Source: Girardia tigrina
Taxonomy: Eukaryota
Assembly: GCA_001938485.1 (NCBI GenBank)
Contig: MQRK01217781.1
Coordinates: 21,397 to 85,396, forward strand
Reading direction: 5' to 3'
Length of the DNA stretch: 64,000 nucleotides
Shown: positions 5,300 through 58,085 of the stretch, piece after piece
How the letters are laid out: every line of letters begins with the position of its first letter
Numbering within the stretch: position 1 is the first letter of the stretch
Notes under the pieces: generated by a model
Seen by the model: the letters and a program-made list of their open reading frames with translations, nothing else
The model's database searches: none
What the model was told of the DNA's origin: nothing
Position numbers and translations under genes: made by a program

Positions 5300-8200
5300 T
5301 CACGGAAAAGATAATTTGTTAACAAAATGAAACGATGATTTGCTTCTTCGAATAGTTTTCAAACGATTTTTTGATCTAGCTCTCACGCCGTGACCTTCCG
5401 GGGTCTTGTTTGTCAGTCCTGACCGTCGAGCTGGCTTAAATGTATAACCCAGCTGCCTTGTGTGATGATAATTATTCGAATCTGATTCATTTTCACTCTC
5501 CTCCAGTATGACATCTGGTGCAAATGTAGGCATGGACAAATTTCGAAGCTTTTTTGACTCATTGATTCTCTTTTTATTACAGAGTTTAGTGTAATACTTT
5601 ATGTAAAATATTTGCATGTCGAAACAGCACTGATTTATTTGCTCTTGGGAAATCTATTTTAAATAACTGAATTAAATAAAAATAATAGTTTCTAAATAAA
5701 AATATTTTATCACAAAAAAATCCAAATTAATGAAATCTAATAATTACATGTATAAAAAGAGCTTTTTATATTACCACGTTTTTATAACAATCAATTTTTT
5801 CCACTATATTGTCCTTAAAATTTCAGTTTTCGATTTTAAAATATTTAATCACTCTATTCTCACTAAACAAACACAAAATACACAAATTTTTACGAAATAT
5901 TTAAATAATTTACATATCAACTGTTTACATAAACTATTAAAATCCCTATACTTTCAACAACGCCATTTATCGATGTTCTTCTTCAATTTCTATATATTTA
6001 AATTGACCGGTATTAGTGTTAACTAGAATTGATAAAATAAAATGAATTAAAATTAATTTATATCGTAAGCTATAATCTGATTTGAGCTATTAATAATTAT
6101 TAATTAACAACAACGGAGATTCAAATTTGATCAAAACAAAGATTCAAATCATTTTATTATACAAAATTTACCCATTTAAATTGTCTCCATACAAACTGTT
6201 TTTTGCCAAATGACAACTTAGACATGTCCGATCAACTTGAAATATTTTTTTCATATATCGTCTTCGGGTTATGATCTACTCTGAAAATTTCAGCCCGATA
6301 GCTAGTCGGGGATTTGGTCAAATTTGAGTTGAAAGATTTTTCCCGGACAGAATGACAAACCGACAACAAGTGAAGTTTATAAGAACGTGGAAATAAATAA
6401 TATTTTATTAGACAGTGTTACAAAAATAATATAAAATCTTCTTTGTATGGTAAATTAGAGTCTGACAAATAAAGTATATATATATGGACATTTTAAAAAA
6501 TAGAATCTGAAAAAAATGGAATTTTGAAGTTAAAGAGTTGATATAGCCATATGATTCTCGCAAAATCAATCTCTTAGTAATCTTCTGTTTTTCAATTGAT
6601 TTATACATGGTGATATATAGACATTAGTCTCGCATCGAACATGGTTAATAGCTTCCTTTGGTGTAGCAGTTGATAAATCTACTTTAGTCAATTCCGATTT
6701 AATTACACTACTTGAAAGCTTGTCATTGGATTCATCATTACATGTGTCGATCATATTGCATCTCGTAATAACAAAAGAATTAATGATTTCCTTATAGCAA
6801 ACATTTAAATTAAAACTGCATTCAAGCTTTATATATTTTTATTTCGCTGTATGACTTTGTTACTTATGCCCTTTAACGGCGATGATTTAGAAAACATGTT
6901 AAGCAACTCCTGGATAGAACTGAACATGTTCCCCATTGGAAATTCCAGTTCTAGTTGCTTTGCTCTTACACTCCTTATATTTAAAAAATCGAATTCTATT
7001 TTTTAAATAAATAATAAAAAAAATTCTATTTTTTAAATTGTTCCAATATATATATGATTGATATAAAAATAAATAATCTATTTATTACTTTAACTCTACA
7101 TTTACCTAACTCATCAGTCACAGTATTTATCATTTTTGCATTATTTTATTCTTTGAGTGCTCCAGTTGATCGCGAAATCACCCATATAAAAATAGCTTGC
7201 ACACATAAAAATGTTGCATAACTCTGATTTGAGTAATTCAGATTCCATTTAATATCTGAAAATCATGTCTAATCCAATTAATAAAATACAAATAAATCAT
7301 TTTTGATTGTTTTTTATTTTTCTTTATTTTTTATAACTAAAATTGAGATTGTCTGGTAGTATGTTTTGCGAGAATATATTAATTAATAAATATTCTTGAG
7401 TGCGGAATTAATTTATACGTAGAATTATATTATAATTAGATTTATATATGGTATAACACTAGAAATTATTAATAATCTTTAAAATATTTATGCCCAACTT
7501 AGAAGTCAATTATTTATTGTCTTAGTTTACTTCAGAGAAATTTATAACGTTTTGAAATTATAAAGGGTTCGCTTAATAAGAGTTTTATTATATTGTTTTC
7601 GAAAATGAAGAGTAATTATATATTATTAATCGATAAAAATCTTAATTTATAATAAAAACCTTAATACAATCAATCAACTATTTTAAACTAAAGGATGAAA
7701 TTCGGAAATATGACGAAGGATATTATAACTTGAATATTATAACAAATGTTTGTTCGCACTAAGGACTGAGTGCGAAAAATATTACTAACTTTAAAATCCT
7801 CTATCTCCAAAACCATATTTTTGATTAAAAAATTACCGACTGTTTTGAAAAATGTGTTTAATTCAAAATAATTTGAGTAAGCTAAGAAAGATTATTTTTT
7901 AATAAATTCTGCGAGCTTTTTCGGAATACCTGCCATTAGGCTTGCAATTGTAGTTTCTGTCACGGTTTTGGCTACATTATTCCACTTGTTCCGAAAATCT
8001 GCGATTGTCTGTGCCCTCTTGTTTGTCGATTGGGATTACCTATCTTTGCACCAAACGACGTTATTGCCTTCGTACCACTTCTTGGCTGCCTTACCATAGT
8101 AGCACGATGCCAAATCCGGCGAAAAGAAAGTAAGACCTCCGTGCTGTTTTTCAAACAACAGCCCACTTAATTAGTTTTTGTAATTTGTGAATTTATGTTG

Positions 8201-10772
8201 GAGTTATACAGATTTAAAGTTAGTAATATTTGTCGCACTTAGTTCTTAAATGCTTCCTCTATATGAATTGATCAAGAAATGATGAACTGCATCACCTGAT
8301 AAGTCATATCTGATAGCCTTGAATTTTTGCTTTGCTCAACATTATTTAAGTATCTGTATCCCCACACATATACAATATATTTTTACAAAGGATTATAATA
8401 AAATAATACTGCTCCATTCCCGAAATAGGTGTCCGATTTGGATTTTTTCAAAAGTAAAGAAAATGTGGCTTTACTTTCAAAAGATGACTATTATTTTGAA
8501 AACACTTTTTATTTATAATGTTTTTTTACAGTTATTCAAAGTTTTTCTTAAAATATTAGCTTTCAATTAAAAAATAGGAATTTTCAAGACCTCATATGAA
8601 GATCTAGACTTGAAAATATTTTTTCTAAAAATGATCAAGAAAGACATCAATTAATTCTTTAACCACTTAATGCTCGGATTATTTTTACAAAAATAGTAAT
8701 AAGTTAAAAAATAAAGTCAATTAAAAACAAAAACACGCCATTTATAAAATATATTTTTTACGACAATTAATTTCGACGGTATAACCGTCATCGTCAGGTC
8801 TCAAGAAAAAAATGATTTAAAAAATCATACTTAAAAATCTTTTTTTCTTGAGACCTGACGATGACGGTTATACCGTCGAAATTAATTATCGTAAAATTAT
8901 GTTTTATAAATGGCGTGTTTTTGTTTTTAAACATAATTTGCCATTATTTTTTAATTTTCTGAATAAATAATATTTAATAATGTCTTCAAAATGAAACAAC
9001 CCAAGATTAAAAAAGGCAAGTCGACATTATAGCTTTATGGATCGTATACATGTAAACAAGTCGAAATTCTGGAGCAACGTTCGTATTAAGGCTATTTGAT
9101 AAGTACAAAGCGCACGAATGCTATTCGTTCAAAAGCATTAGATGGTTAATAAATAAAAAATAATTATTAATATCTTTATAGACTAAAATGAATTTTCTTA
9201 AATTTACTATTTATTTTAATGTACATTCAAATTAACATTCGAAAATTTTAAATAGCAAATTATAATTGATAATATTAAACATAGAAAGGGGTTACTGGAC
9301 TAAATTCAACAAATGAACTTGAAATCCCCCTAACCCTAACCTAAACCTTTGTTGAAATTAATTCTGCATCCCCATAGAAAGACGCTTGAAAATCATTTTC
9401 TTAAACATACTTTAACTAAATGACTTTTTTAATATTAAATTACCGTTCACAATAATCAATAATATATATTAGTTCATATAATATATGTGTTCAATACTGC
9501 AAATATTTAAGGCATAACTTATTAATTAAGTACACATTGATCAAGTCTGATACTATCTAACTTTTTTCATAAATAAGTAGACTTATATTCAGATAAATTA
9601 CATTTTACAGACCAAAAATTAATCACGTTATTCAATATTTTGAAAATTGAAAAAAAATAGTAAATATTGTGCTGTAAGAAATATCAAGAATTGACCAAAT
9701 TTTTCAATACAAAAATAAATTTAAACAAAGTATCTGAAAAGTATAATGCATTGAATTAAAAATGTCATATAACAGTAACAAAAAACCAAAAGTTACCTTT
9801 AAATAGTTACGAAATTCAGTTATGCGAGTAGGAGAGAAAAACAATATAGGAATTGGAGGTAATACTGACAACTGTTTTTTTATATCTGGATAGAAATCGA
9901 TATGTCGGGCAGCCCAACTGACAACACTGAGAGCTTGGCAAGCGATACTGTGTTTTGTGAGCTCACAACTTGTACACAAAATCATAGCCAAATTAATGAC
10001 ATGATGAAATCTTTGACTTGAATCAGGATTGTAATTTAAAATCAATTCGAGATAATTCCATATTGTTAAAGTAGACAAATCATTGTTAATTAAATTACAC
10101 AAAGTATTTTTCATTCTATCCATATCATTTATATACGATTTACAGAAATTTGTCATTTGTAATAATAGGAATATTTCATCACGAGACATCGTCTAGAAAC
10201 AAACGATAAATAGTCATCTTTCTATATAATGATTCATCGTAAGAATGGACTCACGTAGTTCATAATTTGCTTGACACTGACGACATATGCTGTATTCATG
10301 AGAAAAGAGAAAATTTTTAAATCAATTGTTTTTTCATCAATAGCTCGAAAAGTGTAATGAATGGCATCGAAAAAAACTTTTGGAGGATGATCGAATATAA
10401 TTTGATTAGTAAATCGAAGATTGTTTAGATGTGTCGAAATTTGATCAACAGTTGCAAATTTTGTGACATTAAACTTATTCTAGGTTTCAATAAGAAAAAA
10501 AAGGAAATAAAAACAAAAAACCAAAGTACTTTCTCTAAGTTAATTCGGCTTGAAATATTGAACTTGTATTTTGATTCCAGAGATTGGAAAAAAATTAGAG
10601 CATTTATTTCATCATCTGATAATGGAGATGCTTTCTGAAATGAAATCAATGTTGTAAATTGCAATTGAATTGCTTGTAAATTATGATGAAATAATGCCTT
10701 AAAAATATATATCCGTCTATCTAAATAGAGTTACGTAACATAATTAAATAAATTCATTCTCATGCTTTCCAT
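5300..10772 (-). CDS. Divergent cyclin G/I-like protein, about 392 aa; exons 10772-10740, 10697-10530, 10479-10255, 10192-9797, 5653-5300
   Basis: GT-AG introns (42, 50, 62 and about 4140 nt) are all phase 0 and join into one open frame. Cyclin-box-like segments: HPPKVFFDAIHYTFR, AYVVSVK, DMDRMKNTLCNLINNDLSTLTIWNYLELI and CELTKHSIACQALSVV. The first exon is the least certain. Confidence 0.6.
5770..6394. mobile_element. Non-autonomous DNA element bounded by 17-bp inverted repeats
   Basis: attaccacgtttttata (5770-5786) matches the reverse complement of tataagaacgtggaaat (6378-6394) at 15/17. The end is gacag/gacaa-rich, as in Helentron/HINE-like elements. Confidence 0.45.
7905..8165 (-). mobile_element. 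Tc1/mariner-superfamily transposase C-terminal remnant
   Basis: The reverse complement reads LTFFSPDLASCYYGKAAKKWYEGNNV... and ...ADFRNKWNNVAKTVTETTIASLMAGIPKK (FWPDLASCHY-type motif). Confidence 0.65.
8765..8800 (-). ncRNA. Minimal hammerhead ribozyme motif (left arm of palindrome)
   Basis: Reverse complement reads CTGACGATGACGGTTATACCGTCGAAATTAATT, with a perfect 5-bp stem II. Confidence 0.75.
8851..8888 (+). ncRNA. Minimal hammerhead ribozyme motif (right arm of palindrome)
   Basis: CTGACGATGACGGTTATACCGTCGAAATTAATT. Confidence 0.75.
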
Positions 10773-12719
10773 GTGAATATTTCATTTTTTGACACACTAA
10801 GCGCCAGTGTGCCTTAGAATTCGGTTATGCATATGATACATGCTGGACTGTTTATCATCACAATTTGAATTTTATCACAGTAAATTATCATATAAAGATT
10901 TTTGATTTTTAATAATCCTCGACATAATTTCTTTTTCTTTCCTTCAAATAATTTCATCCAATTTTAAACGAAAATATATAAAAACTGATTAAAAAAACAA
11001 TTTTATTTAACTAAATTAAAATCAAAATTCGTTTCCAACTCAAAAATCAATATAAAAATGAAAGTCAAGTCAATATATTTATCAAGAAAATATGAATAAA
11101 CAATAAAGTCAAAAATTATTTAAATTAGGAATTATAATTATTTATTATTAGACTAGTAAATTGATAAATTAAATCGAAATTATAAACTTACCATTAATAT
11201 GAAAAAATTGACTATGAAATTAGAATTCGTATTATTTTAAATAATAATTGAATATTTAAACAAAATCAGAAGATTTATTAAAGATGCAGAAATAATTTTT
11301 CAATTTGTAATTTTAAATTTATAAATTTAAATTTATAAATTTAAATTTAGAAAGACAAAAAATTGAATTTAAATTATTATATTTAGTTAAAATTAAGAAT
11401 GAAAAATTTTAAGTTAAACCATTGAAACCTAATAAAAAACTTTTTATCAAAACTTTTAAAGAATTTTCGTTTATTTGAAACGGAAAAAATATCATTCACT
11501 TAATCTTTATGCTGTATTTATATTTTATATCGTTTTTTCTTCAAAATCTAAATTTTTTATTTGTTTTAGAGTGTAAAAGAGATTATTTTAATTAACCTGA
11601 ATAACCTAAAGCATGTTATTATCAGAAAATATTGTTACTATAACTCGACTTCTAACTTGTAGATAATAAGCATTTAAATAAGTTAACATTAAAGTGAGTA
11701 CTTTCAAATTTTTTTAAATCAAACTGAATTTTACTCAAATATAAAAAATATATTAATGTATAAGATAAATTTATATTTTATAATAATCACATATACAAAG
11801 GTATTTTATCTAGTAAGAATGACTTAATGTTAGTTTTTAGCAAATACTCACGAGTTTATATTTTGATAAAAGTTATGATAAAAATAAAATTTATTTTAAT
11901 AATAAAAATTGATGATTTCAAATAAATACTAAATAAAGTTTATTGAATTTAAATAATTTTACATCGTTAACAGGAGAACTAATAAATATTAACCTATTAG
12001 ATTTTTAAAAAACTTCAATTAATTCTTTATCCCGTTCAGTTTTGCTCAGATTTCTTAAATTTCCTGGTCGATTTAGATGAAAAATGTAAATACAAGTGAT
12101 GAATGAAAATTGTATCCCGTTAATTTATTCACAATCTTAAATTTTTTATCCATTAACGAAATGAAAATCCTGATGACATTTCTTCAATTTCCATGTCAAT
12201 TTAAATAGTACGACTTGTGTTCACAATTCGCAATTAAATTTCTCCTGTCCCCTAAAAATGTATGTCTTCTTGAATTCACTAGTATCTTATTTTTTTTATT
12301 TTTAAAAGAAGTTTACTTATGACAAAACTACTTCATATTTTATAATTTTTGAAAAAATGTGTCTTTAATTGTCTACTGATCTCTTGTTAGTACTTGTTTA
12401 TTTTTTTCATTTTAATAGTATTTTCTGTTTCTTTTTGGTTCATCTATTTACTTTCAACTTTTTAAAGCAATGTCCTTTATTTACTTTTGTCTTCTTGAAT
12501 AATACCCTTTTTATTGCTCAAATAATTTTTGTCGTTAATATAATTTTGTAATGTTATATATTAAAATTATCTATTAAAAAAGCTTTTAAAAATAATAGAG
12601 TATATATACATTAATAATAAACAAGTTTATTTTGAAACGAACAACGAAAATCGATCATTTTTGTAAGATTTTTTTGTAAGATTTAGTATATTCAGTATAT
12701 TCAAAGTATATTCAGCAAT

Positions 12720-13170
12720 AAATCTCGTACTCCTTTGAGTTTATGTTTCAATTTGGTTTATCAATTTTCGTGTAATTGGTGCAACACTACATACATTGAA
12801 AAGACGTCTCGTCATCTCTGTAAACGGATTCAGGAGCATGGACGATTGGGTAATGGGAGTAATATTGCTGGACATATGAAGGGTTGTAAATCAGAGGTGA
12901 AAACAACTAATTTTAAAATATTGTGCAGTAATTTTAAAAATTATTGGGAAAGAGTTACTTGTGAAGCATTATTGATTAAATCGCTTAATCCGTCCATTAA
13001 TGTACAAACAGGTTTCTCTTCCAATTCGTTGAAAATATTTAATTAGTCATTATGCAAGATGTTTACATAATCATCAGTTTGCTATATATAAGACAGCGAA
13101 TTCAACCTGAAGATGGTGGAAAATCCACCGAAATATATTGCGACAATAAAATTTGATTTTAATGGCGTTC
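12720..13170 (+). mobile_element. 5'-truncated Penelope-like element: GIY-YIG endonuclease plus pseudo-LTR
   Basis: ORF 12735-13046 has [30 protein letters not shown]...EALLIK..NPSIN, followed by TATATAA and a hammerhead. Confidence 0.9.
13107..13139 (+). ncRNA. Minimal hammerhead ribozyme motif
   Basis: CTGAAGA-T-GGTGG-aaaat-CCACC-GAAATATAT-T. Confidence 0.8.
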
Positions 13171-13415: not shown

Positions 13416-16091
13416 CCATATTACTTCGATTTAACCTTTTCTTTCATAGTGTTGTTTTACAACAACATTAAGTTTATTAGCTGAGGAATTTTAAGCAACA
13501 GAAATTCCGCTATCTATTTTAGTGTTGTGCTGCAACAACATTGCGAATATTTATATTGATTTAGGGAAACTTGAATGAATTAATTTTATGTTTTCAAGCT
13601 TGGAGTGTAATTAAAATTAACATGTAAGTTTAAGAATTATAATTTTATTTTTTATTGATGGTATATATATATTATTCAAATACATAGTTTTCTGAGAATA
13701 AAAAATATGATCCATATTATTTGAACCTTTACTTTTGATTGCAATTAATAACATTTTGCAATTAATAAATAATACCACATGTAAAAAATATAATGTATTT
13801 TATTAAAGTTGTTCACAAACAACATTGCGATGATTTGGATTCTCATTTGATAACATTTATTTAAATTTTTACATTTTAGAATGGCATCCCGTTATAGTTT
13901 GCGAGCTTCTCGTGCAAGTGTGACAGATTTCAGGCAACTAATGGCACGTGGTGTTCTGATACTACCAGAAAATACAGGACAAAGGGATGAATACATTGAG
14001 GATGTTATTGACGATGTTGACGATGATATAGAGGAGCATGAAAGTGAGAATGAACCTCAAGAAGATAAAGAGAATGAACGAGTTTACCGTTGGAGAAGGG
14101 GAATTTCTACACTTCCTGTTAACACACAATTTACTGGAAATAATGAGCTAATAGTTGTTGATGTGAAAGAGCCTTCAGAATACTTTCGTGAATATTTTAC
14201 TCAAGAAGTTTTTAAACATTTGGTTGAACAAACAAACTTATATTCTGTTCAGAAAGGTGGAAAAAGTATAAAAACAGATGAACAAGAAATTGAGCAATTT
14301 ATTGGACAGCTACTATTCATGGGATTTCATAAATTGCCCTCCTATCGAATGTACTGGTCTCCTGAAACACGAATCGAGTCTGTAGCTGGGGTTTTAAGTT
14401 TGAAGAGGTTTGAGACATTGAAGAGATATTTTCACGTGAATGATAACTCTAAAATTCCCGATAATAAACCTGATCGCCTGTACAAAGTTCGACCACTTTT
14501 GGATTCAGTTTTTAAAGTCTGTCAGTCTAAAACTCCCAAAGAATATAATTCAATTGATGAACAAATGATACCTACTAAAAGTAGGACAGATATGTAGCAG
14601 TACCTTCCTAAAAAGCCCAAAAAATGAGGAATTTAAGTTTTTGCAAGAGCCAGTACCGATGGAATGGTCCATAACTTTGAAGTATATGGGTATTTGAAAA
14701 GGATGCCAAAGAATCAACGGCTGATATTGTTGTACGGCTATGTGAATTTCTGCCATAAAAACGTTGGACACAAGCTTGTTTTCGATCAGTATTTTCACAC
14801 CTTGGATTTAGTAATTCATCTGAAAAATAGTGGATATCACTTGCTGGGAACAATGCAGTCTATAAGAATGAAAGGAGCTCAAAAAATACTTCTTTCAGAA
14901 AAAGAGCTGAAACAGAAGGGCCGTGGTTCAATGGATTCGGTTATTGATGCCAATTCTGGAGTAGTTCTTGTCCGATGGTCGGACAATGGACTAGTGCAAA
15001 CTATATTAACGTTTTTACCACCAGAGAAAGGCACTGACTGCAATAGATGGTCTTCTCGAGAAAAAGAATATGTAATTGTCCAACGTTCTAAGTCAATAGA
15101 AGCCTACAATAAGAACATGGTAGGTGTTGACCTCAATGATAAGTTAATGACACTTTACAGATTACGGCTGGGCACAAAGAAGTTCTACATACATGTAGTA
15201 TACGTTTGCTTGAATTTGGCTGTTATCAATTCTTGGCTCCAGTACCGAAGAGACTGCATACAACTTGATATCCAAAAAAAACAACAGTTCAGCCTTTTGA
15301 AGTTTCATTGTTCCATAGCTGACTACTTGTTAAAATACAAAAAACAAAATCAAACCTCAGTGGAAGGCAATCTTCATCTTCAAATAATTCTAATTTGTCT
15401 AAAAAAAGCAAAACTAACGCTGCTGAGCCGATACTTGGTAAAGAAATTAGAAATGATGAAAAATGCCATTTTCCATTATTTGATCAACAATTGCAACACA
15501 GATGCCGCTTTTGCAAAAAGGTTATACATATGTCAAATGCTATAAATGTAATATTTTGTATGCCTATTATCATCTCGTAACTGCTTTTATGACTTTCAAC
15601 ATGAATAATGATTGTTTCTGTTGCATTTTTATTGTAAAAATACTAACGTATTATTTTAAATGTAAGTTATTTTCATTTTAATATATGCAACTCATTATAT
15701 GTATACATTTTAAATTATTTATGTGAATTTCTAATTTTCGCAATGTTGTGCATGAACAGCATTCTTATAAATCGATAAATCAATAATCGATTATGTAATA
15801 CATTAAAAGTATGATATATGGGTCCCAAACAAGTCTCATGAATATGTTTAAAAATTTTGTTAATAAGATCTCATAATTTGGGAAATAAAGGGTTAACACC
15901 GCGGCCTTTATTTCAAATGCTGATTCCGAAGGTGCGGTATATATATTTTTTCCATCACAAATATAATTTTCAAGATTTTTTAGTTTAAAGACAAGTGAAA
16001 GGTTTTTTTAAAAAGAGAAAAAAATCATAAAAAAACGGCGTTTATTACAAAATATCGCATAAGGATGCGGCGTTAAATCGAAGTAATACGG
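13416..16091. mobile_element. TA-flanked Tc1/mariner/pogo-type MITE whose left TIR is split by the piggyBac
   Basis: Left end TA|ccatattacttcgatTTAA...caccgc; right end gcggcgttaaatcgaagtaatacgg|TA. Confidence 0.8.
13435..15892 (+). mobile_element. Full-length piggyBac (PGBD2/3-like) transposon, transposase inactivated
   Basis: TTAA TSDs at 13431-34 and 15893-96, with TIRs ccttttctttc / gaaataaaggg. Motifs include LVEQTNLYS, RFETLKRYFH, LYKVRP, SIDEQMIP, FDQYF, WSDN and YNKNMVGVDLND, plus a Cys-rich tail in another frame. Stops and frameshifts near 14597-14660 and 15360. Confidence 0.93.
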
Positions 16092-16965: not shown

Positions 16966-18612
16966 TTAAATGTTGCATTTTAAGTTTTCTAATGCCTTGA
17001 ATTTATTTTTCAAACGATTTAGTATATCTTGAAACAATTTGTATTCATGTGATTCGAACTTAATAGTTTCCTCTAAAACATGAAGTGTATGTTGTAAAGT
17101 TTTAAGAAATTTGGCCACATGAACTTGGACATTGGTTGACAAATCCGAAATATTATTTATATTTCTGAATTCTTTTTCCAGAATTCCTAAAAGTACTAAT
17201 ATATTGTAAACGTTATCCATAAGGGGTTTATAAATGTTTTTAAGGTTATAGTTGTAATGAAATGTATCGGAATAATCAAAGAAATAATTTACATAGTTGA
17301 TGAATCTGAAGTAAAAATAGTAATCCGAGAAATGTTTAATTATTGATTCTGTTTGACTTTTGATTAGGTCTTCCTTATGGAATATTAAAATGGTTTTGAT
17401 AGATTGAATAATAGTGGTTTTCATTGGAAGGTTGCTATTAAAATCTTTTTTATTGCACTCCATTAAAAGTATCTGAAACTGTTCAATAACTTTTTCAATG
17501 TTGGGTTTGTTGACAAAGTCATTAAACATATTTAAAACGAAAGTCTTTACTTGATTTACCAATCTTTCACCGATTATTTCTCTTTTACTCATTAAGTGAT
17601 CCAATATTCGATGATTTTGTTCTCCATCTGGTTCTCCACAAACATTATACCTTAAATCCAAAATTTCTGTATTGTCAAAAGGACAGCATCCTAGAAATAT
17701 TACGTTTCCCAAAATGCACCGAGAACATATTTTATGAGAACATGATGAAAATGAACCATAAAAATCCCAATTTTCAATAGCTAGCAGACAAATGAGGCAT
17801 TTTTTAAAATCAGTTGGATCCATTTCCGGTTGAAATTTAAGATAAAGTTGATTATTATTTCGTACAAATGAAACTACCAAAACCGATACAATTTTTAACA
17901 CCTCTTTCATTTTTTCGATATCATTTTTAATGTTTTCTATGATTTCTTGAATTAGCTGTTTTGAGAGGGTCGCTTCCGACGGAATTCCTTTTCTGGAAAA
18001 AGGGAATTGATACTTAAATTTTCTTAAACCCGAGGTTAAATTTTCTGCGAAATAAAAACCATTCATGGGTGCAATCGGTTGCTTATACTTTCTGTGCATA
18101 ATTGTATGGAAAACTGTTTCCTTTGAACAGTGCCAAGGAATTTCTATTAGAGATTTATAGATCGCTTTTTCAGTTTCAAAAGTCATTTGGAGAAGATTAG
18201 AGAATTCCTCTTTTGTGATTTTTTCATTTTGATTTAGCCACTTTTTAAAAAGTATTTTTGATTTGTGCAGTAATTCGATTGAATAAGAAAGAGGTTTGTG
18301 GAACATTGAAAGACATATAGAAAGATTGGTTTCTATTTCTTTGATTATTTGCTCGGGATTTTCTATTAACACTTTATATTGGTATTGGGAAACTGTTTTA
18401 GTATCATCTTTTTTGCCATTACAAAATCGAGTAACATGCCTTAATGGTTGTCTATCAAAAGGACAAGAAGTATTTTCTTGAAACAAAATTTCTTTTGAAC
18501 ATTTCAGACAACAAATATGATGACATTTTTCAAATTGCAAGAAAGTATTTTCAAGATAAAAATCAAAACATAAGGGACACTGATTTTCATCGATATCTAG
18601 TTTATCATTCAT
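16966..18612 (-). CDS. Intronless protein with two RING-type zinc fingers, putative E3 ubiquitin ligase (about 548 aa from the first ATG)
   Basis: CPLC..CHHICCLKC..CPFD and CLIC..CSHKICSRC..CPFD, each followed by a long helical region. The ORF is uninterrupted for 1.6 kb in AT-rich DNA. Confidence 0.8.
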   Translation of the reverse strand: MNDKLDIDENQCPLCFDFYLENTFLQFEKCHHICCLKCSKEILFQENTSCPFDRQPLRHVTRFCNGKKDDTKTVSQYQYKVLIENPEQIIKEIETNLSICLSMFHKPLSYSIELLHKSKILFKKWLNQNEKITKEEFSNLLQMTFETEKAIYKSLIEIPWHCSKETVFHTIMHRKYKQPIAPMNGFYFAENLTSGLRKFKYQFPFSRKGIPSEATLSKQLIQEIIENIKNDIEKMKEVLKIVSVLVVSFVRNNNQLYLKFQPEMDPTDFKKCLICLLAIENWDFYGSFSSCSHKICSRCILGNVIFLGCCPFDNTEILDLRYNVCGEPDGEQNHRILDHLMSKREIIGERLVNQVKTFVLNMFNDFVNKPNIEKVIEQFQILLMECNKKDFNSNLPMKTTIIQSIKTILIFHKEDLIKSQTESIIKHFSDYYFYFRFINYVNYFFDYSDTFHYNYNLKNIYKPLMDNVYNILVLLGILEKEFRNINNISDLSTNVQVHVAKFLKTLQHTLHVLEETIKFESHEYKLFQDILNRLKNKFKALENLKCNI

Positions 18613-18939
18613 TTTAAAATGAATTATAATTATATAAAAATATATAAACAAAATAGTTAGAAAATTATTGCATAATAAATAATTAGGGAAAGGAATAATG
18701 AATATTTAACTTATCTGTTATTTCACTTTTCAACCCTTACCTTTTCAAGAGAGAATACAGTCACATAATCTATGATTGAAAGTTAGAGTCCTCCACTTTG
18801 CATGAATATTTGTACGTAAACTTTCTGCAATTATTCAGGATTGAGTTTAACAACTCTTTCATTTAAAACTATTTTTCCTTATAGGGTAATGTTTGTTGCT
18901 TCTCTGTTTTCTAGCAAATTAGTCAGGGTTAAACAACCC

Positions 18940-44400: not shown

Positions 44401-47400
44401 GATCATGATTCTGTGCGACTGTTGGCGGTCGAGGCGACAGTTCAGTTGTGTGGGGCTATAAAAATGTCGTGTTCCATTGCCGATATGGAAAGTTGGTCGG
44501 TTTCCTATGAAGAAGAACTGGAAAAATGTATTGTGCCGCAACTATTGAAAGCTGTTGTTGATAAATCGTGGCGAGTTCGATATATGGTTGCCGATAAAAT
44601 AGCTGAAATCCAGGGCGCTTTGGGAACTAATTTATCGAAAAAACATTTACTGGTGAGAATAATTTATGAGTTTATTATTTTTTTTTTAATTTGTGATTTA
44701 ATTTAATGATATTTTTTGTATTTATAATTTTTATGTTTTAAATGTTTTTAAATACACCGATTGATTTTTTTTATTAAAAATTATAAGTAAATGTACACGG
44801 CTTTAGGAGATCCCTTTAAGGTGTGGAATTTACAATATTATACACAGATTCCTTTGAGATTGAGGTCCACTTGTCCTGTTAATAATAACTCAGAGCAACG
44901 AGTGTTCCATTTCTCTCTCTTACTTCTCACAAATCTTCTCTATTTGCTTGACGTCGGACCTTTGAGGTACCTATGGCATTACAGAAATTCTTGTAATCTC
45001 AAACCAGCTCTTCACCATTTAAAAGTCTTGTTCGAATGTCGTTGCACTCACCCCCGACTATAAGTTAATGAGACCATTCTCAGAGATTTCGACATATTCC
45101 TGGTTATTGACAAAGGGATGATACAAACTATTCAAGATACAAAGGCAGTGGTCCAAATACCTCTCGGATAAAGCAATTGCACACTATCATCGACCCTCTA
45201 CTGTGTTTTAAAGGGTAACCTAAATAAAACACCATAAAACTTATTATTTCTACTGATGTTTATTGCAATAAATGTGGTATGAACATAACTGGTAGTCACG
45301 GGGATACAGCTCTTTTTGTCGCCAAACTCACACTCAACCATCCGATTTGAATAACGTAAGATGTGACTCGTCAGACCAAACGATGTTAACCAACTGTCCA
45401 AGACTTTCGCTCTTTTCACCACGATAATATCTGTCTTCTGTTTGTCTCGCGAATATCTGATTTTTTCTTTCCAAGTCTTCTGAAGTAGCGGTAGTAGCGA
45501 CGGGCAGTGTATAGAAAGGGCAGGGACGTAATCAGCGCAAGTTAGTGACTTGCGCTTACTAGGAATTCCTTGTTCAAGTGGGATAATTTCAATCCACTAT
45601 TCCTGACACGACAGTGATTCAGCAGGTTACCCGGTCATTTCTAGCTAGGAATAAAACTCGCTGGTACTGCCATTGTAGCGCGCGTGTGGCCCCGGAAATC
45701 TAAGGGCATCACAGACCTGTTATTGCTCCATTTCATTTAGCTAAACACTATTTATTCCTCTAAGATGTCAGCATTTTGTGATTTCCATAATAAGTCATTT
45801 CATGCAGACGTCTCCTTATGGTCCACTTGGAGACTGGGAATGGGATATATAAAAAGTGATTTGGGTGAGGGAAGAATTTCTGGTTTAGAGGGCTAGCAAG
45901 ACATTTATCGATGGGAGCCACAATAAGAAAAATGTGGTAATATATTACATAATATATTACAGTAAACATAAAACCAAGGTTTTCAAAATTTTAAAAATCT
46001 TTAAGCGGTACTAGATCTAGCAATTCTTCATTGACATCTGCAGAAACATATCAAATAAATACAGTCAATATTGGAATATATTGAGTATCCGTAGATTTGC
46101 CAAGAACTAAATTGGTTGCAACACAACTTTTTACATTTCTTATCAACTGCTCTAGACAATACTTACTGATTTCAGTAAGACGTCACTCAGTTTTATGACA
46201 TGACATTAAAATTTGCTAAATTAATGAAGTAGTTTACTATTTATGAGATACAGATAGTTCTAAACCCCTTGATATTCTTAATAAAATCACCCTTTGTATA
46301 TGAACGTTTTGCACGAGCAATATTTCACAATATAGCAAAGCCAGCGTTGACCACAGAATTATGTTTGTTAGCAAAATGCGAGATTAATTTTTTCTAAATA
46401 AGTAGCGAAGACTTCAAGGAATTTATTTTACATCTTAAATTAGAATTATGCGGATATTCAACAATAAAGTAAGCATGGTTTTGATCATGGTATCACTTTA
46501 GATTACTTACTTTGTACTGAGAAAGTGATTGACTGAAAATAAACACAGTGATTTTCCGTTTCTATCGACAAATGCATTATTTTCTTCGTATTTTGGTCTC
46601 AAACCTCTACTTTCATCTTCATATCTTTTCTTGTTATTTGACATTCATTGATTTTGCTAATGATTTTCAATAAACAAACTATTTTTCAGTACATTCAAAA
46701 TATTTTATTGTAAAAGCGTCATTCATTGAATATATGTAAATATTACTATTAGTCGTGGATAAAATCTTAGTGATTTCTTATAGTTAAAAAAGTTTGTCCT
46801 CGTTTGAATAATAAACTATTACAATTTATAAAATTTTGAATAACGAAACCATAAATTTAGTTATCTTGTGGTTTAAAAAGATAAGTTTTTTATAAATGAA
46901 TGACTTCTAAATGTTAAGCTTTGCTAACTGAAGCATTTCAATATTTAATGTCTATTTTTTATTTTAATGAGTAATAAAAAATATTGATTAGTTGTGGATA
47001 CAAAAGAATTGATAATAACAATAAAATGAATGTAAAATAATCTTCTACTTATATAAAATTTTAAATTTAACCATTTCCAGTCCATTGTTGCCATATGGCA
47101 ACATATTTGAAAAATTAAATTACAGTTATCTCTTTTACCCAATTTAAATTTTACACATAGTAATAGTTTCTAAAAAGTCTAATAGATGACACTACACATA
47201 TTAGAATGCAAAAAACGCGATTCTCACTTTTTTCTTAGCAATTTAAATCAACATTGTTTTTTTTCAAAATTAATAATTTGGGCTTGGAAGGGTTAACTCA
47301 ATTTTAATGCATAATAAACTTTACACTAATTAATAATTACACTTTCAAATAAACAGAAAGTTAGAGATGACATCATGATTACGAGAATTGATCACATAAT

Positions 47401-50400
47401 TTTCATATTCGATGTCTATCTTTTTCTAATCTTAAAATATTTTTGTATCTTTGCACATTTATCAATTGGAAACAGATGAATTAATCTAATTTTCTGATGT
47501 TGGCATTAGCAAAATTACTCATTTTTTTATTTCTTCTTAAGAAAATGAATGATATCATTTCAACATTTTGTATCTTATTAATTTTTTGTGTGACAAAATG
47601 TGATATACGTTTTAAATTCTAAGAAATTAATTTTAAAAACCGAATGATTTCTTTAAATTAAAAAAATAATCTAGGGTGACCAGTTGCTTAAAACCGGTAG
47701 GATGACAATCATTGATAAAAATCCAGACAGTCATATATTTCGTTGATTCATCTGCGTTAGATTAAATATGAGGTATTTTCCTTCAAAATATATGTTAAAA
47801 AGATGTATATTTTTGGGATGACAACAGGTTAAGCTGACAGAAATTGTTCTAAATTTTCATTTTACAGAATTTGAATTTAAAATATTTAATTAAATGACAT
47901 TGTTCAAATACTAATACTCATACATAATTCTCGTATAAATTTACGACTTCTTTCACAAGTACCTTCTTTTATGGCATATTTTCACGCTTAATTAAAATTT
48001 CACACTTAACATTAAATGTCTCAAAATTAGATAAAAATTTTATGAAACATAGACAGTTTTTCAAATCCCGCCCGGACGAGCATAAGAACCCGGACATGTC
48101 CGGAAAAATCCGGATGTATGGTGACCCTAATTAATCTTATATCACAGAATCTCGGTACAAATATTGAGACGAAAAATTAAAGGAATTGAAGTGCTTATAT
48201 TTTCATGCTATATTTTTTTATTTATTTGTATAAACGAAAATGTTCTTATTAATTGTATTATTAGGGAGCATTTATAACCCTTCTTAAAGACAGCCAAGCT
48301 GAAGTTAGAGCAGTCAGTGCTAGTAAGATCAATTCATTCGCATCAGAACTTTCGGACGATAACAGGAAACAAATCATCAAAGAAACTATGATTCCAGTTG
48401 TAAAAGAATTGATGATAGACACCAATTGTCATGTCAAATCATCTTTAGCTACTTCAGTTATGGGACTAGCTAAATATATTGATACACAAGATACAATAAC
48501 CCATTTATTACCAATTTTTATTCAACAATTGAAGGATGAAAATTCAGAAGTTTTAACTAAATTTCTCACCATTTCAATTTAATTCTCCATTTGCAGGTCA
48601 GAGTGAACATCATTTCTAACATCAATGCAGTACACGAAGTATTGGGAGTTGAACAACTGAGTTTAAATCTTCTGCCTACAATAGTTGAACTGTCATCTGA
48701 TAGCAAATGGAGAGTAAGACTGGCGATAATTGAAAATTTCCCGCTATTAGCTAGACAATTGAGTCGAAAATTCTTTGATGATCAACTGAAAACCGTTTGT
48801 TTGTCGTGGCTGGTGGACCATGTCTATGCAATCAGAGAAGCTGCTGTGAATAATTTGACCAAATTAACGGAAATTTTCGGTGTTGAATGGGCTGAATCTA
48901 TGATTGTTCCACGTGTAAGTTTTCTCTTTATTCAATCAATTTGGATTTTTGTTTGGCTATATTTAACTTTTTTACTAATCGATATAGCAAACACGTGATC
49001 AATATTTTTTACCATAACTTGTTTTTATATCAATTTTAACACTAAACTCTCAAAATGGCGGATTGAACATTTAATAATTTCAATTTCCATTATAATTATG
49101 TGAATATGGTTTTATAAGATTATGAAGACTTTCCATAAGACAACATTGTAATTATAATTCAATGATAATGTTCCTTTTAAGCACTTTAATTTAAATAATA
49201 GAATGAATTAAACCGAATACACATTTTACGTCGGTAGCTCTAGTGTTAAAGCAAAAAGTGGCACTTATATCCTTTAAATGTTTTCGCTAACCATCTTTTA
49301 TTTCTCACAAAAAAGGTCAGTCGTAATTGCATTTCATGAAATGCTTTTTACAATTGACTCTGTAAGAGAGTGTAACTCTTTACCGTGACGAAGCGAAGGC
49401 AGAAGAACAAGCCACTAGTCGGTTATCGAGAAATCTGCATGCAAATGTCTCCACCTAAACGGTGCGATTAAATTAAATTAAATTAAACCCCTTTCTCCAA
49501 ACAACTTGTTTCCAGGGACATGGTTATGTATACAAAGAAAAGATAACTCTTCCCAAAACACCCGCTAACGTCTCTGATATCGCTTGTTGCCAAAACAACA
49601 AATCTCCGTTTTCAAGTTCAGGAATATTAAAGTTGCGAGGGGGGAATGATTTTATGAGCCAGCGATACCCACCAATGAACAATGTTTTTTCACACACTGA
49701 AGTTTTACCAGAATAAAAAGTCCAGGATCTGGAATTTCAACTGTTGCTTCACCACTCTTATAGTCGACACGTTGCCCCGTTAGATTTTTATTTGTTCTGA
49801 TCGATGGCTCACTTCTTGCATGGTCATAAATTGTGGACGTTGAAATTAGGCGTGGAAAGTTTTTTGTTTCAAACGATATAAAAATTGTAGATGATTTGAT
49901 AAAAATAACTGATTTAAATTGATTGTGGTTTGTCGAATAAATAGATAATTTGATGTTGCTTGAATTTCAGTTTAAGTAAAGTTGATTAAACAGTTGATAT
50001 TATTTCAAAATATCCTCCGCCATTGACTGACCAGAACAGAGTTCATACATCAATCCCATACTTTCACACTTAAGAATCAATATTTAGCAACGAATCACCG
50101 GTGTTTTCAACATTCCAAATATTAAGCTGTTTTTCCAAGTTTATATTTTTTGTTTATACATCATGGAATTCATTTTTACGTTTCCATGTCATGTGTCAGA
50201 TTAACCCTTCGTAACATGCTGTGACACTTCTGTAACAAACCGCTGTAACTCTAACTATTAACATATCACATTTTAAATCACCGGTACATGCTCGGTGTGT
50301 AACAGATATGCAACAGTGATTTAAAATGTGATATGTTAATAGTTAGAGATCATATAAGAGTTGCAACGGTTTGTTACAGAAGTGTCACACCATGTCGCCA

Positions 50401-53345
50401 TATAAACAACATCAATATGAGGTTTACAACATTTATTAATATTACAAGCGCATTCACTATTTGACATCTCTCTTGATCAATTTTTTCTGAGTTCAAACTA
50501 ATTATTTTCAATAAATGAAAATCTGTTAATAAGAATTATTAAATTATAAAGAATCTAATTGGTTAAAATTAAATTACATTAAAAAATAAATAATACATTC
50601 AAAAATTATTTTAAATCTTTTTACTTTAAAATTAAATTAAATTATTTTTAATTAGTAAGAATCAAAGAAAATATCAATCATCCATCTGTGTAGGAGAGGC
50701 ACAATCCGAATCAACATTCTACATGCACAATATCAATACACAATTCAAAACATTCCTCACAATAACAAATGAAATAAATTTGGAGTCAGCTGTAATTATG
50801 GGAGATAATCATAAAAATCGATTCGTTTATGTGAATGATTTTTATTTCGGAATTAATTTAATTGCTAATTAAATCGTTAAGTTCGTTTATATTGATATTA
50901 ATAAGGAAATTTCAAAGACCAATAAATTTGTTTACATATTGGCAACAAATTAAAATGACATTTTTAAGTTTATATAAAGTTTATATATAAGTCCATATAA
51001 AAAAATATTTCGCAAATGTTTTATGTAATAGAAATTATGGATACATCGACTTGGAAGGTTTGGAAAAATTAGTTATAGAAAGTAATGTGCAGAGTGACCT
51101 TAGAATTGACCTAAAAGTAATAATAATATTAATTTAATTCGACGTTTTTATTCGCGGTGTTTTGTCCAAAAAACGTGTTGGTTATTCAAAATATATTGTT
51201 ATTAATTTAGACGGATCAGCCGCCATCATCAGACCGAATTAACGATGATATACTCGCGTTTATATATCAATCATTAATTTTATATATCAATTACCGTTTT
51301 CCAACCGTTTATATATAATCATTATGTCATTTAAATCATGAAAATACTTTCAATAAAGTTGAAGAGGATAAAAAGATTTGATCAACAATACTTCACACAT
51401 CGCCCTCTCCCAGTAATTATCGAATTGTGAACACAAAATCTTAAAATTACTTACAAATTATGGAGAAATAATGTTAATGAACACCATTGCTGTTCGGGAA
51501 TTGTTATATTTTGCAACATCGAATTTACGATTTCTATTTAATAATGATTGGTATCAACAGGTTGATGGGGTAGCTATGGGTTCTCCATTAGCTCCAACTT
51601 TAGCTTCGATATTTCTTTCAAAGGTTGATAAGTCTATATGATGGTATAAACGTTTAAAATTTATAAACGTTATGTAGATGATATTTTTCTATTGTTTAAT
51701 AATAAAGAACAAGTCGAGCTTTTCTTAAATTATATGAATTCCCTACATTCAAATATAAAATTCACGGTAGAATATGAAAACAATAATGTTTTACCATTCT
51801 TAGATCTTTTGATAGAAAGAGCGAAAAACAACCATTTTGAAACTGGGATCTATAGAAAGAAAACTAACAGTTTTTGTGAACCTAAATATATAAGAAATAT
51901 GATAAAAATATGATGAAATCTATAGATCTTGGACACTTTCATCTACGTACACTAAATGTAATGAAATTATTAATAAGTTAATGAATTTACTCCATAAAAA
52001 TGGATATTCCAAATCGATAGTTGAAAAATTTACTCGGGAAACTGTCGATAAATTAATTAAATCGGAAAATGAAAATGAAAAATCAAATACAATAAATGGC
52101 GACAGAAACAAAAATGAGATAAATACTAATTATGATAATATTGGTTTTGCTTTGACTGTTCCCTACTCTGGGGGTTTCAGGAAATTCAAAAACTCTATTT
52201 TGAAACATGATTAAAATAATTTATTAAATTTAAAAATTGTATCTGGATCATGCAAGATAGGAAGTTTGTTTAGTAGTAAATCTATCACTCCAACTGGGTT
52301 ATGTTCCAATTTAGTTTATCAATATAAATGTAATGGGTGTGACGCCACATACATCGGAGAGGCTTGTCGTCATCTCTGTAAACGGATTCAGGAACATAAT
52401 CGCAGGGAAAGTGATAGCAATATTGCTCAACATAAGAAGAACTGTTTGAATAGTAAAGTTGATGTAAGTAATTTTAAGATTTTGTGTTCACAATTTGATA
52501 ATTACTCGGAGAGGGTGATGTATGAAGCATTGTTGATTAAATCTTTTGATCCTAAAATCAATGTCCAAACACCATCCTCTTCAACTTTATTGAAAGTATT
52601 TTCATGATTTAAATGACATAATGATTACATAAACATTGCTTGGATATATATATAATATACATATAATATATATCTATATCTATATATTATATGTATAATA
52701 TATATATATTGGATATCGTTAATTTAGTCTGATGATGACGGTTGATCCATCGAAATTAATCATAATATATTTTTATGAATTTTTTTTTGTTTTTTAAAAA
52801 TTCCTTGTCGTCATTTTTTAAATATGTTACAAAATTACATTTTTAATAAATGTTGAAAATGAAAACGAAGGAAAAATGCGCCTCTCAGAAATGATTTTCA
52901 TATTTACAATCCGTCTTATCGAAATAGTCGCTCATTCCGAAATGATTATTGATTTCCAATTATTTCGACAGATGGTCCAATTGTCGAAAGATGCCAATTA
53001 TCTTCATCGCATGATCTGTCTCCAATGCATCAGTTCCCTGGCACCTCTGCTGGGTCCCAGCTTGACTAAAGAAAAATTTTTACCCACTGTTCTATACATG
53101 AGGGACGACAAAGTCGCTAATGTCCGATTCAAAGTAAATTCTCTTCATCATTGGAAATATAGTGCTACAAATCGTTTCAGACAGCGCAAACACTGGCTAA
53201 AATATGTATGTCACTTGATGCTCCGGTTCTGCAGTCGGAAGTGAGACCGTGCTTGGATAAGCTTGTTTGCGATGAAGACTTGGATGTCAAATTCTTTGCA
53301 TTGGAAGCAGTCGAACAACTTCAGTCTCATTTGAAATCGGTTTAA
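41499..53345 (+). CDS. PPP2R1A: Protein phosphatase 2A 65 kDa scaffold subunit A, 609 aa; exons 41499-41792, 44047-44652, 48265-48549, 48597-48914, 52972-53133, 53181-53345
   Basis: [84 protein letters not shown] and DVKFFA. All introns are GT-AG and phase 0, with AATAAA after the stop. Confidence 0.97.
42000..43900. repeat. Long imperfect AT-rich inverted repeat filling PP2A intron 1
   Basis: 42320-42480 is the reverse complement of about 43490-43655. The outer boundaries are approximate. Confidence 0.7.
42504..43400. mobile_element. Long-TIR element (same family as 26881-28760) carrying a pogo transposase N-terminal fragment on the - strand (about 42680-43000)
   Basis: The right TIR reverse complement is ggtatagttccgtacgagccccagg. 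The cargo reads [46 protein letters not shown] (BrkDBD/CENP-B HTH-like). Confidence 0.7.
45230..45488 (-). mobile_element. Possible non-LTR RT fragment abutting the 18S fragment
   Basis: [30 protein letters not shown] resembles the LINE RT segment before the GVPQG motif. Confidence 0.35.
45489..45748 (-). pseudogene. 18S rRNA gene fragment (3' region) within PP2A intron 2
   Basis: The reverse complement contains GCAATAACAGGTCTGTGATGCCCTTAGA and GATTACGTCCCTGCCCTTT..CCCGTCGCTACTACCG, with substitutions at normally invariant positions. Confidence 0.93.
45990..46640 (-). mobile_element. hAT (Charlie/Buster/SPIN-like) transposase remnant
   Basis: YKVSNLK*YHDQNH (BED finger), [10 protein letters not shown] and [20 protein letters not shown]. 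Confidence 0.7.
47672..48129. mobile_element. hAT-type MITE
   Basis: TIR tagggtgacca / tggtgacccta, with subterminal ccgga repeats. Confidence 0.75.
50201..50396. repeat. Palindromic piggyBac-type MITE remnant
   Basis: Starts TTAA-CCC. The arms acatgctgtgacacttctgtaacaaaccg...atcac and gtgat...cggtttgttacagaagtgtcacaccatgt are complementary. Confidence 0.7.
51200..51235 (-). ncRNA. Hammerhead motif, probably inactive (GAAA changed to TAAA)
   Basis: Reverse complement reads CTGATGA-T-GGCGG-ctgat-CCGTC-TAAATTAAT-A. Confidence 0.6.
52729..52761 (+). ncRNA. Minimal hammerhead ribozyme motif, sense to the PP2A pre-mRNA
   Basis: CTGATGA-T-GACGG-ttgat-CCATC-GAAATTAAT-C, giving an AUC cleavage triplet with one mismatch in stem II. 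Confidence 0.7.
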
Positions 53346-53619: not shown

Positions 53620-54069
53620 AGGTATAATGAATTTAATAAAAAAATTAACCTAAACTAGCAAGAGAACAAGTAAACCTAGAAGGAGATATTAAGATTTTTT
53701 ACATGTCAGGAATTACGTCTTATGATCAAAAAAATAGACTTCCCTAGAAAATACAAAATATTGAATCGAGGTTGAAGATGCATCGAAAGAGGATTAAACA
53801 ATATAGAAAAAAATCAAAGATTAAAGGATTTTTATCAATTTAAAAAAAATGAATTGAGTAGAGTAACAATTTTAAAATTAATATAATAAACAACTAGATT
53901 ATAATAAAAAAAGTCATTACGAAACCCATTTTTTTTTATTATAATCTAGTTGTTTATTATATTAATTTTAAAATTGTTACTCTACTCAATTTATTTTTTT
54001 TTTAAACTGATAAAAATCTTTGATTTTTTTCTATATTGTTTAATCCTCTTTCGATGCATCTTCAACCTC
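53620..54069. repeat. Dispersed repeat (second copy at about 58658-58890) with a local inverted duplication
   Basis: aggtataatgaatttaat...ctagaaggaga...tgaatcgaggttgaagat occurs at both loci. 53767-53801 is the reverse complement of 54036-54070. Confidence 0.7.
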
Positions 54070-54107
54070 GTAATGATATTCATTTCCTTTCCTTTTTATG
54101 CTATATA

Positions 54108-57260: not shown

Positions 57261-57779
57261 TTTGGGGTCAAAGTATAATAGTATACCATCTCTAAAAAAC
57301 TTATAAAACTTTCATTTATAATAAATAAAATAATAAGAAAGCTCAGTGGAAATATTTTGAAAAAATATTTTACATGTAAATAACGACATTCAAATTCGAC
57401 CTGCAAGTGGTAATGAAAATCCAATTATAGTGCAGGATTTATTCCTTTGAAAAGTTCTTTCTGGTTAAACTGATTTGACAGTAATATTTTGGAAAATAGA
57501 GGATCGAATGATATATCAGAGAAAATGTCAGATACTTCAAAGAAATTTCACTGAAATGGCCATTGCCGTGATGACAATGGTATATGAGAAAGTCCCTCAA
57601 AGTCTTATATTCTTTTGATTCGAACTTTAGAAAATGTTGAACAAATGTGACAAATTTGGCGTAATTTGTGATTGGTCGTTTTCTTTTTGGTGACTCGCTT
57701 CGATTTTTGAAATTTATAAAATTGAAAGAGTAATATTGCTGAGCATAAAAAAACGTGTAAATGTAATATAAGCATAAAT

Positions 57780-58050
57780 GATTTTAAGATTTTGTGCAAG
57801 CATTTTAAAAATTATTGGGAGAGAGTGTCATGTGAAGCATTGTTGATAAGATCATGTGATCCTAAAATCAATGTTCAAACAGCACTCTCAACTAATTTGT
57901 TAAGAGTTTTCGATTAGACTTACATAAGTGATTACATAATCATTCTTTTCATATATAAAAGCAATAAAAAAGAACATAATCAGTGATCTGATGATGACGG
58001 TTAAACCATCGAAATATATTATCCTGAAATATATTTTTAAATGGCGTTTA
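57780..58050 (+). mobile_element. Penelope-like element 3' end
   Basis: [37 protein letters not shown], followed by TATATAAA and a hammerhead. Confidence 0.88.
57981..58026 (+). ncRNA. Hammerhead ribozyme motif with plausible stem I
   Basis: cagtgat-CTGATGA-T-GACGG-ttaaa-CCATC-GAAATATAT-T-atcctg; cag(t)gat pairs with atcctg. Confidence 0.8.
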
Positions 58051-58085
58051 TTTGTTTATAAAGTTTGGAATGTTTGTTTTTTGTA

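Follow-up and report, generated by a model that had tools for sequence, protein, structure and literature searches.

The 64,000-nucleotide stretch of Girardia tigrina DNA analysed here (the window) contains a short palindrome with a hammerhead motif in each arm, and the question it raises is whether this is a new protein-free mobile RNA or the footprint of an element already known. The original prediction had placed two Penelope-like element (PLE) ends back to back at 8721-8930, and the near-perfect inverted repeat was confirmed: 3 substitutions and 2 single-base gaps separate the arms, whose identity is 94.9% across an alignment of 98 columns, and the minus strand of 8700-8990 folded at -143 kcal/mol (z = -23), a stability equalled by none of 200 shuffles. 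The insert contains no RT, GIY-YIG or TATA sequence, as had been claimed, and the arms had been rightly recognised as PLE ends, but a 33-nt tail present on one of them had been missed. Neither did the proposed 210-bp unit with TTAA ends agree with the empty sites, which gave 242 bp instead. The insertion, its parts and its carrier are the following:

8722..8963, no strand: whole insertion, from empty-site comparison
8722..8818, minus strand: left arm, an inverted pLTR end of the PLE that lacks the tail and matches many genomic copies at 92-97% identity
8819..8830, no strand: inversion junction, unique in the genome and placed where the pLTR is locally quasi-palindromic
8831..8963, plus strand: right arm, a PLE pLTR end with tail, sharing 89.7% identity with the 3' pLTR of family locus L087 across 136 bp
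8931..8963, plus strand: PLE tail of 33 nt, only on the right arm; a tail is present in 20 of 34 family arms
8663..9145, no strand: host MITE with imperfect TIRs of 12 bp, an empty length of about 241 bp, and TTAA at 8659-8662 and 9146-9149

Because the insertion landed in a multi-copy MITE, which we take to be piggyBac-like from its TSD rule, the site before insertion can be specified at single-base resolution. The empty-site check proposed earlier was run on other copies of this host MITE in the same genome, and the left flank adjoined 8964 directly in all 19 of the 19 loci fetched; the joint 8721>8964 was also present in contigs of sequencing runs X1, X2 and X4. The flanks of the 242-bp insert are repeat themselves. 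TAAA stands at both 8722-8725 and 8964-8967, which leaves its ends ambiguous by 4 nt; this 4-nt TAAA overlaps the arm end and may be its target duplication. Since the empty sites and the TTAAs of the host MITE fix the boundaries, the right TTAA of the predicted unit (8927-8930) is internal, with PLE family sequence extending 33 nt beyond it, and the left one is target sequence overlapping the arm end. A TTAA duplication at both ends of the insert was absent, the genuine one being that of the host MITE. The short TAAA stands against a textbook event, given that TSD-like repeats of 10-19 nt, AT-rich and counted without a shuffle control, were found in 10 of 15 paired sibling loci; target site duplication in PLEs is described in passages of PMC3846280 as optional and about 8-10 bp long.

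When the genome was searched with the 210-bp unit, 40 of 352 candidates were scored and yielded 86 matches, which were single-arm apart from the locus itself and one partial palindrome (L002). The 27-nt hammerhead core was present in 1,506 exact genomic copies (control, 0). In several family loci the arm sequence extends upstream into the end of a GIY-YIG frame, and the parent copy L087 (2,774 bp) consists of an inverted pLTR, an ORF with YVDD and GIY-YIG motifs, and a 3' pLTR, its ends diverging as they do at 8722-8963. Pfam RVT_1 matched L087 with E=1.1e-6 and 29 bits, slightly below the 29.6 cut-off, and the GIY-YIG of the parent family was matched weakly (E=0.0069) and was assigned mainly by its motif. 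In many copies, no stop codon interrupts the ORF frame between its ATG within the hammerhead and the end of the tail, and in L087 the tail peptide runs on into the long ORF. Judged from these sequences, the insert is a 5'-truncated, endonuclease-positive (EN+) PLE in inverted head-to-head arrangement, of the Penelope/Poseidon type according to domain order.

The inverted head-to-head layout was found at lengths of 204-2,774 bp in 15 of the 19 loci examined, the other 4 being without a scorable pair. Exactly one end carried the tail in 12 of these 15 paired loci, both ends in 1 and neither end in 2; L087 has it at both ends and L005 at neither. The endpoints of 34 family arms fell at the tail in 20 cases, at 70-90 nt past the core start in 12, an endpoint shared by the left arm of the insert, and earlier in 2. 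Both arms begin immediately downstream of the family's TATATAAG, and the TATATAAG box lies upstream in 22 of 26 other arms. All 3 substitutions and both single-base gaps that distinguish the two arms sit on the right one, and each substitution was found in at most one other locus. A tail of 30-40 bp at one PLE end is described in excerpts of PMC8557442. The Rfam scan over the element produced just generic hairpin matches, all of them below the gathering score; MIR9486 (70.4 of 100 bits), WsnRNA46, MIR1888 and mir-4659 were dismissed as shape-only.

The locus is very probably a single short 5'-truncated insertion of this abundant endonuclease-positive PLE, formed by two pLTR ends placed head to head, one of them with the tail, in a TTAA MITE within a likely intron; it was likely built on site at integration and is likely inert. 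The arm identity, the RT/GIY-YIG parent, the unique junction, the empty sites and the tail asymmetry were observed, and the mechanism is the part that we infer. The GIY-YIG of the element would nick both strands of the AT-rich target, and each free 3' end would prime reverse transcription at one of two internal starts bracketing the tail, located at about +111 and +78 from the C3 of the hammerhead. Both cDNAs would stop after about 100-130 nt, and the two would be joined via microhomology or a short templated patch. Double priming of both nicks in this manner probably built the inverted stub; fold-back self-priming of one cDNA is a possible, if rather doubtful, origin. In the part of PMC11167929 considered here, the PAc protein cuts and extends both strands of the target, and two RT starts bound the tail. 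Inverted 5'-truncated PLE copies with a one-sided tail of 30-40 bp appear in excerpts of PMC8557442, and passages of PMC3846280 contain head-to-head pLTRs and junction palindromes in PLEs, together with Arkhipova's self-priming model for the inverted PLE half. The quasi-palindrome at the site of the junction is noted alongside that model, and 8819-8830 itself looks as if a short stretch had been copied by fold-back and 2 bases added. When haplotypes of the arms were compared in 13 pairs, both alleles were present at other loci in 4 of 47 substitutions and the rest were mostly private, a result that fits one template haplotype under double priming or under fold-back.

An improbable alternative is that a longer inverted PLE insertion was shortened later by internal deletion between its arms. 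Palindromes are prone to deletion, and longer ones do exist in this family (L016, 1,183 bp, besides the 2,774 bp of L087). Microhomology deletions have also been reported in PLE copies, according to passages of PMC3846280, but the junction carries extra, apparently templated bases instead of a clean deletion, and many independent short junctions were found in the genome. Sibling junctions mostly showed 1-8 nt of overlap or a few extra bases, and the short palindromes formed a continuum of lengths with differing junctions. No longer allele turned up incidentally in the sequences compared.

The palindrome had been assigned to a "cyclin intron". The exons around it are:

10255..10479, minus strand: preceding exon, followed by an intron at 10193-10254 (GT..AG, minus strand) that is skipped in contigs
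9797..10192, minus strand: host-gene exon upstream of the intron, from spliced contigs of runs X3 and X4, with a GT donor after 9797
5300..5652, minus strand: candidate next or last exon, with an AG acceptor and an open frame; putative join to 9797

In contigs of X4 and of X3, the latter presumably an RNA run, 10193-10254 is missing, 9797-10192 is covered, and 350-490 nt follow that lie outside 6500-10800. These spliced contigs, the donor after 9797 and the acceptor at 5652 indicate that the 242-bp insert likely lies in a host-gene intron of about 4 kb, in which 9797 would be joined to 5652. The intron part of the assignment is therefore likely, but neither the Pfam, PDB and ESM Atlas searches nor a structure model confirmed the gene as a cyclin. 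The gene is real, since its exon has a homolog at 38% identity (P0001, E=1.4e-18), the one homolog among 1.84 billion representatives, and it is highly divergent (9797-10730), with no Pfam family. No cyclin box was matched in Pfam by the single exon pieces or by the homolog, and no cyclin in the PDB by phmmer with the single exons and the homolog. The best ESM Atlas match to the exon query (0.85) was unnamed, a homolog search among longer proteins yielded 0 of 40 candidates, and an AlphaFold model from a 2-row alignment reached a pLDDT of 36. The likeness of the host protein to a cyclin box is presumably a loose one, perceived by eye. Another high-copy element with terminal inverted repeats (7760-8248) occupies the same likely intron, where three CCCTAA telomere-like units (9329-9347) were also seen.

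Each arm carries one hammerhead:

8762..8800, minus strand: minimal type I hammerhead of family-type sequence, with stem I GAC/GUC, core, extra U, 5-bp stem II and helix III AUUAAU
8852..8890, plus strand: minimal hammerhead with G1.1>A at 8888 and a stem I mismatch

Both contain CUGACGA-U-GACGG(UUAUA)CCGUC-GAAA (plus strand 8855-8881, minus strand 8797-8771), and the motifs diverge. They share a 3-bp stem I, an extra U ahead of stem II, the G10.1-C11.1 pair and a loopless palindromic helix III, AUUAAU, of the dimer type. The left arm shows all the features of a minimal hammerhead (min-HHR), with a cut predicted from its sequence between 8765 and 8764; the right arm has a mismatch at pair 1.1-2.1. 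There, the plus-strand copy has an A at position 1.1, where 33 of the 37 arms read have a G; stem I loses its first pair, and the modelled dimer energy changed from -16.4 to -10.6 kcal/mol with this A1.1. Hence, of the intact core and perfect stem II attributed to each arm, the core and the stem (GACGG/CCGUC) are present, but the plus-strand hammerhead is not intact. An ATG at 8861-8863 in the right-arm hammerhead is the counterpart of the likely PLE ORF start. No hammerhead family was reported at E<=1 in the Rfam scan of the locus.

By sequence, a transcript of either strand would contain a ribozyme, as had been proposed, but the modelled minus-strand fold buries the motif, the probability of stem II being ~1e-15 in the transcript of 8601-9100. 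Both hammerheads are predicted, from a model of the minus-strand transcript, to be fully sequestered by the hairpin and are likely inactive. A single minimal motif did not cleave in vitro in the experiments described in the available part of Cervera and de la Pena 2014 (PMC4209133). The head-to-head geometry puts the antisense arm before the sense motif, so that no co-transcriptional folding window would be expected. Because transcription always reaches the antisense arm ahead of the sense hammerhead, and because the motif needs a same-sense partner, the proposed switch found no support, and hairpin sequestration together with this order of transcription makes such a role unlikely. We regard the hammerheads as passengers, given that a pLTR always carries one, that a same-sense partner is required and that the predicted hairpin buries the motifs.

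More generally, it is very unlikely that the palindrome was co-opted as a regulatory hairpin, acting on the host pre-mRNA as a ribozyme switch or a source of siRNA. Its great stability and its likely intronic location would suit such a role, but the insertion is young, lineage-specific and placed within a repeat, its arms are decaying, no alternative fold was populated in the model, and any siRNA would amount to ordinary TE silencing. The failure of minimal hammerheads to cleave as monomers in vitro, as far as the available part of PMC4209133 goes, argues in the same direction.

The prediction of a new non-autonomous mobile RNA, retrozyme- or MITE-like and copied as a palindromic unit by PLE proteins, was addressed genome-wide. 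Pairs of hammerheads that point away from each other, their cores separated by 10-150 nt, occupied 40 genomic places (spans of 70-181 nt), a count that is limited to cores no more than 150 nt apart and includes this PLE family as well as sister families. They formed 21 clusters; flanks and junction divide one of these into 3, so that the pairs represent about 23 junctions. Five of these junctions recur, in 2-11 loci each, which could speak for a unit that moves, and pLTRs are able to mobilise sequence in trans according to passages of PMC3846280. Nevertheless, the 28-nt central junction of the insert had one copy in the 1.43 Gb genome with up to 2 mismatches allowed, so the search for copies that had been suggested ended in the single-copy outcome, and the genome yielded no set of copies that agree in junction and ends while lying in unrelated flanks. 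Junctions found in 2-4 loci had outer flanks common to their copies and, therefore, point to passive duplication. The 11-member set, from a sister family, is embedded in a more extensive repeat: the flanks of most members agree for several hundred bases, and some members are interrupted by contig ends or gaps. The insert lacks the TATA of the family, lengths are continuous, and junctions differ elsewhere. We consider a mobile unit of this kind extremely improbable; the palindrome is real, but it is the footprint of a single ordinary PLE, of known architecture, and not a new mobile RNA family. Of the two options in the original prediction, the data agree with the first, a collapsed inverted-pLTR Penelope. 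The sister-family palindrome with 11 copies in a multi-copy carrier repeat has a core span of 149 nt (L031, L036, L041, L042, L093, L094, L096 and L108).

Direct hammerhead pairs within 150 nt numbered 17 genome-wide, and 16 of them straddle N gaps, so there is no sign of short same-sense retrozyme arrays of this family at that spacing. Collapsed palindromes are possibly undercounted, as the assembly is fragmented. A bolder version of the mobile-unit idea would hold that PLEs have given rise to a second class of non-autonomous elements, the head-to-head min-hammerhead stubs, which silence themselves and are recopied as a unit by PLE protein from read-through transcripts that present a pLTR end on either strand. 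We think this highly improbable. If it were true, the stubs would be hidden from short-read assemblies, 8722-8963 would be one member, and its hairpin would trigger siRNAs directed at a family that numbers more than 1,500 copies.

The contigs of the four sequencing runs break inside the host MITE and, therefore, neither show nor exclude the junction. A fold-back chimera created by the assembly is extremely unlikely too: the assembly is fragmented and gapped (255,254 contigs), 16 of the 17 direct pairs cross gaps and none of the contigs listed spans the junction, but the insert contains no N, its arms differ at 5 places, one of them has the tail, it fits the empty site exactly, and the same biology is found at many other loci.

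The architecture of the insert is already in print, as inverted truncated PLE copies and as dual opposite-strand minimal hammerheads, in excerpts of PMC8557442, PMC3846280 and PMC4209133. With the EN+ PLE insertions of PMC8557442 and Pen2a_Av (PMC3846280), as far as those excerpts describe them, it shares head-to-head pLTR ends, 5' truncation, the one-sided tail, a pLTR with the ORF start, an AT-rich target and a parent with RT and C-terminal GIY-YIG; it differs in being extremely short (242 bp, without the ORF body) and in its 4-nt duplication overlapping the arm end. PLE remnants of Schistosoma mansoni carry "dual min-HHRs" about 100-700 bp apart on opposite strands, according to the available part of PMC4209133. 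These share with the insert the minimal type I fold, the extra nucleotide between 9 and 10.1, G10.1-C11.1, the palindromic helix III and the close opposite-strand motifs, whereas the insert has cores just 57 nt apart, a 5-bp stem II and a 3-bp stem I. Similarly to PAc of the Anolis Poseidon, as portrayed in parts of PMC11167929, the ORF ATG lies at the start of stem II, two preferred 3' ends bound the tail, and the predicted cut falls 27 nt downstream of the ATG (26 in PAc); those parts treat PAc as a full element without inverted stubs, in contrast to the inverted stub described here. Non-LTR retrozymes (bioRxiv 10.64898/2026.07.22.740005) are, like the insert, protein-free and PLE-derived with a type I hammerhead, but they form direct tandem arrays with at least two same-sense hammerheads, and no such tandem was found at the insert, which is inverted, single-copy and unable to form a dimer in cis.

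The locus itself is of small importance, being one among dozens of such stubs in the genome. The approximately 23 independent short junctions and their tail asymmetry provide material for the question of double priming versus self-priming, and palindromic double-hammerhead matches and miRNA-like Rfam hairpins in animal genomes are often PLE stumps.

Other PLE sequences were seen in the window. A second inverted insertion, of 1.6 kb and from a related family, lies at 51188-52773. It holds an RT-thumb/GIY-YIG fragment, with a tblastn match to L087 (E=1e-67), between two hammerhead-like motifs that point away from each other (about 51200-51232 and 52726-52761). Three further PLE 3' ends (534-842, 12687-13139 and 57728-58062) each consist of a GIY-YIG tail and, behind it, a minimal hammerhead whose stem II differs. 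A near-perfect MITE-like palindrome of ~300 bp occupies 53767-54070, with no hammerhead core seen in it, and a 100-bp hairpin at 50249-50348 gave a sub-threshold Rfam match of miRNA shape. Broken ORFs at 13854-15545 resemble a piggyBac-type transposase, a possible relative of the helper of the TTAA MITE, and a 579-aa minus-strand frame (16966-18705) contains two cysteine-rich stretches that we take to be RING-like. Finally, a eukaryotic SSU rRNA fragment was detected on the minus strand at 45572-45674 (65.7 bits, above the gathering score).
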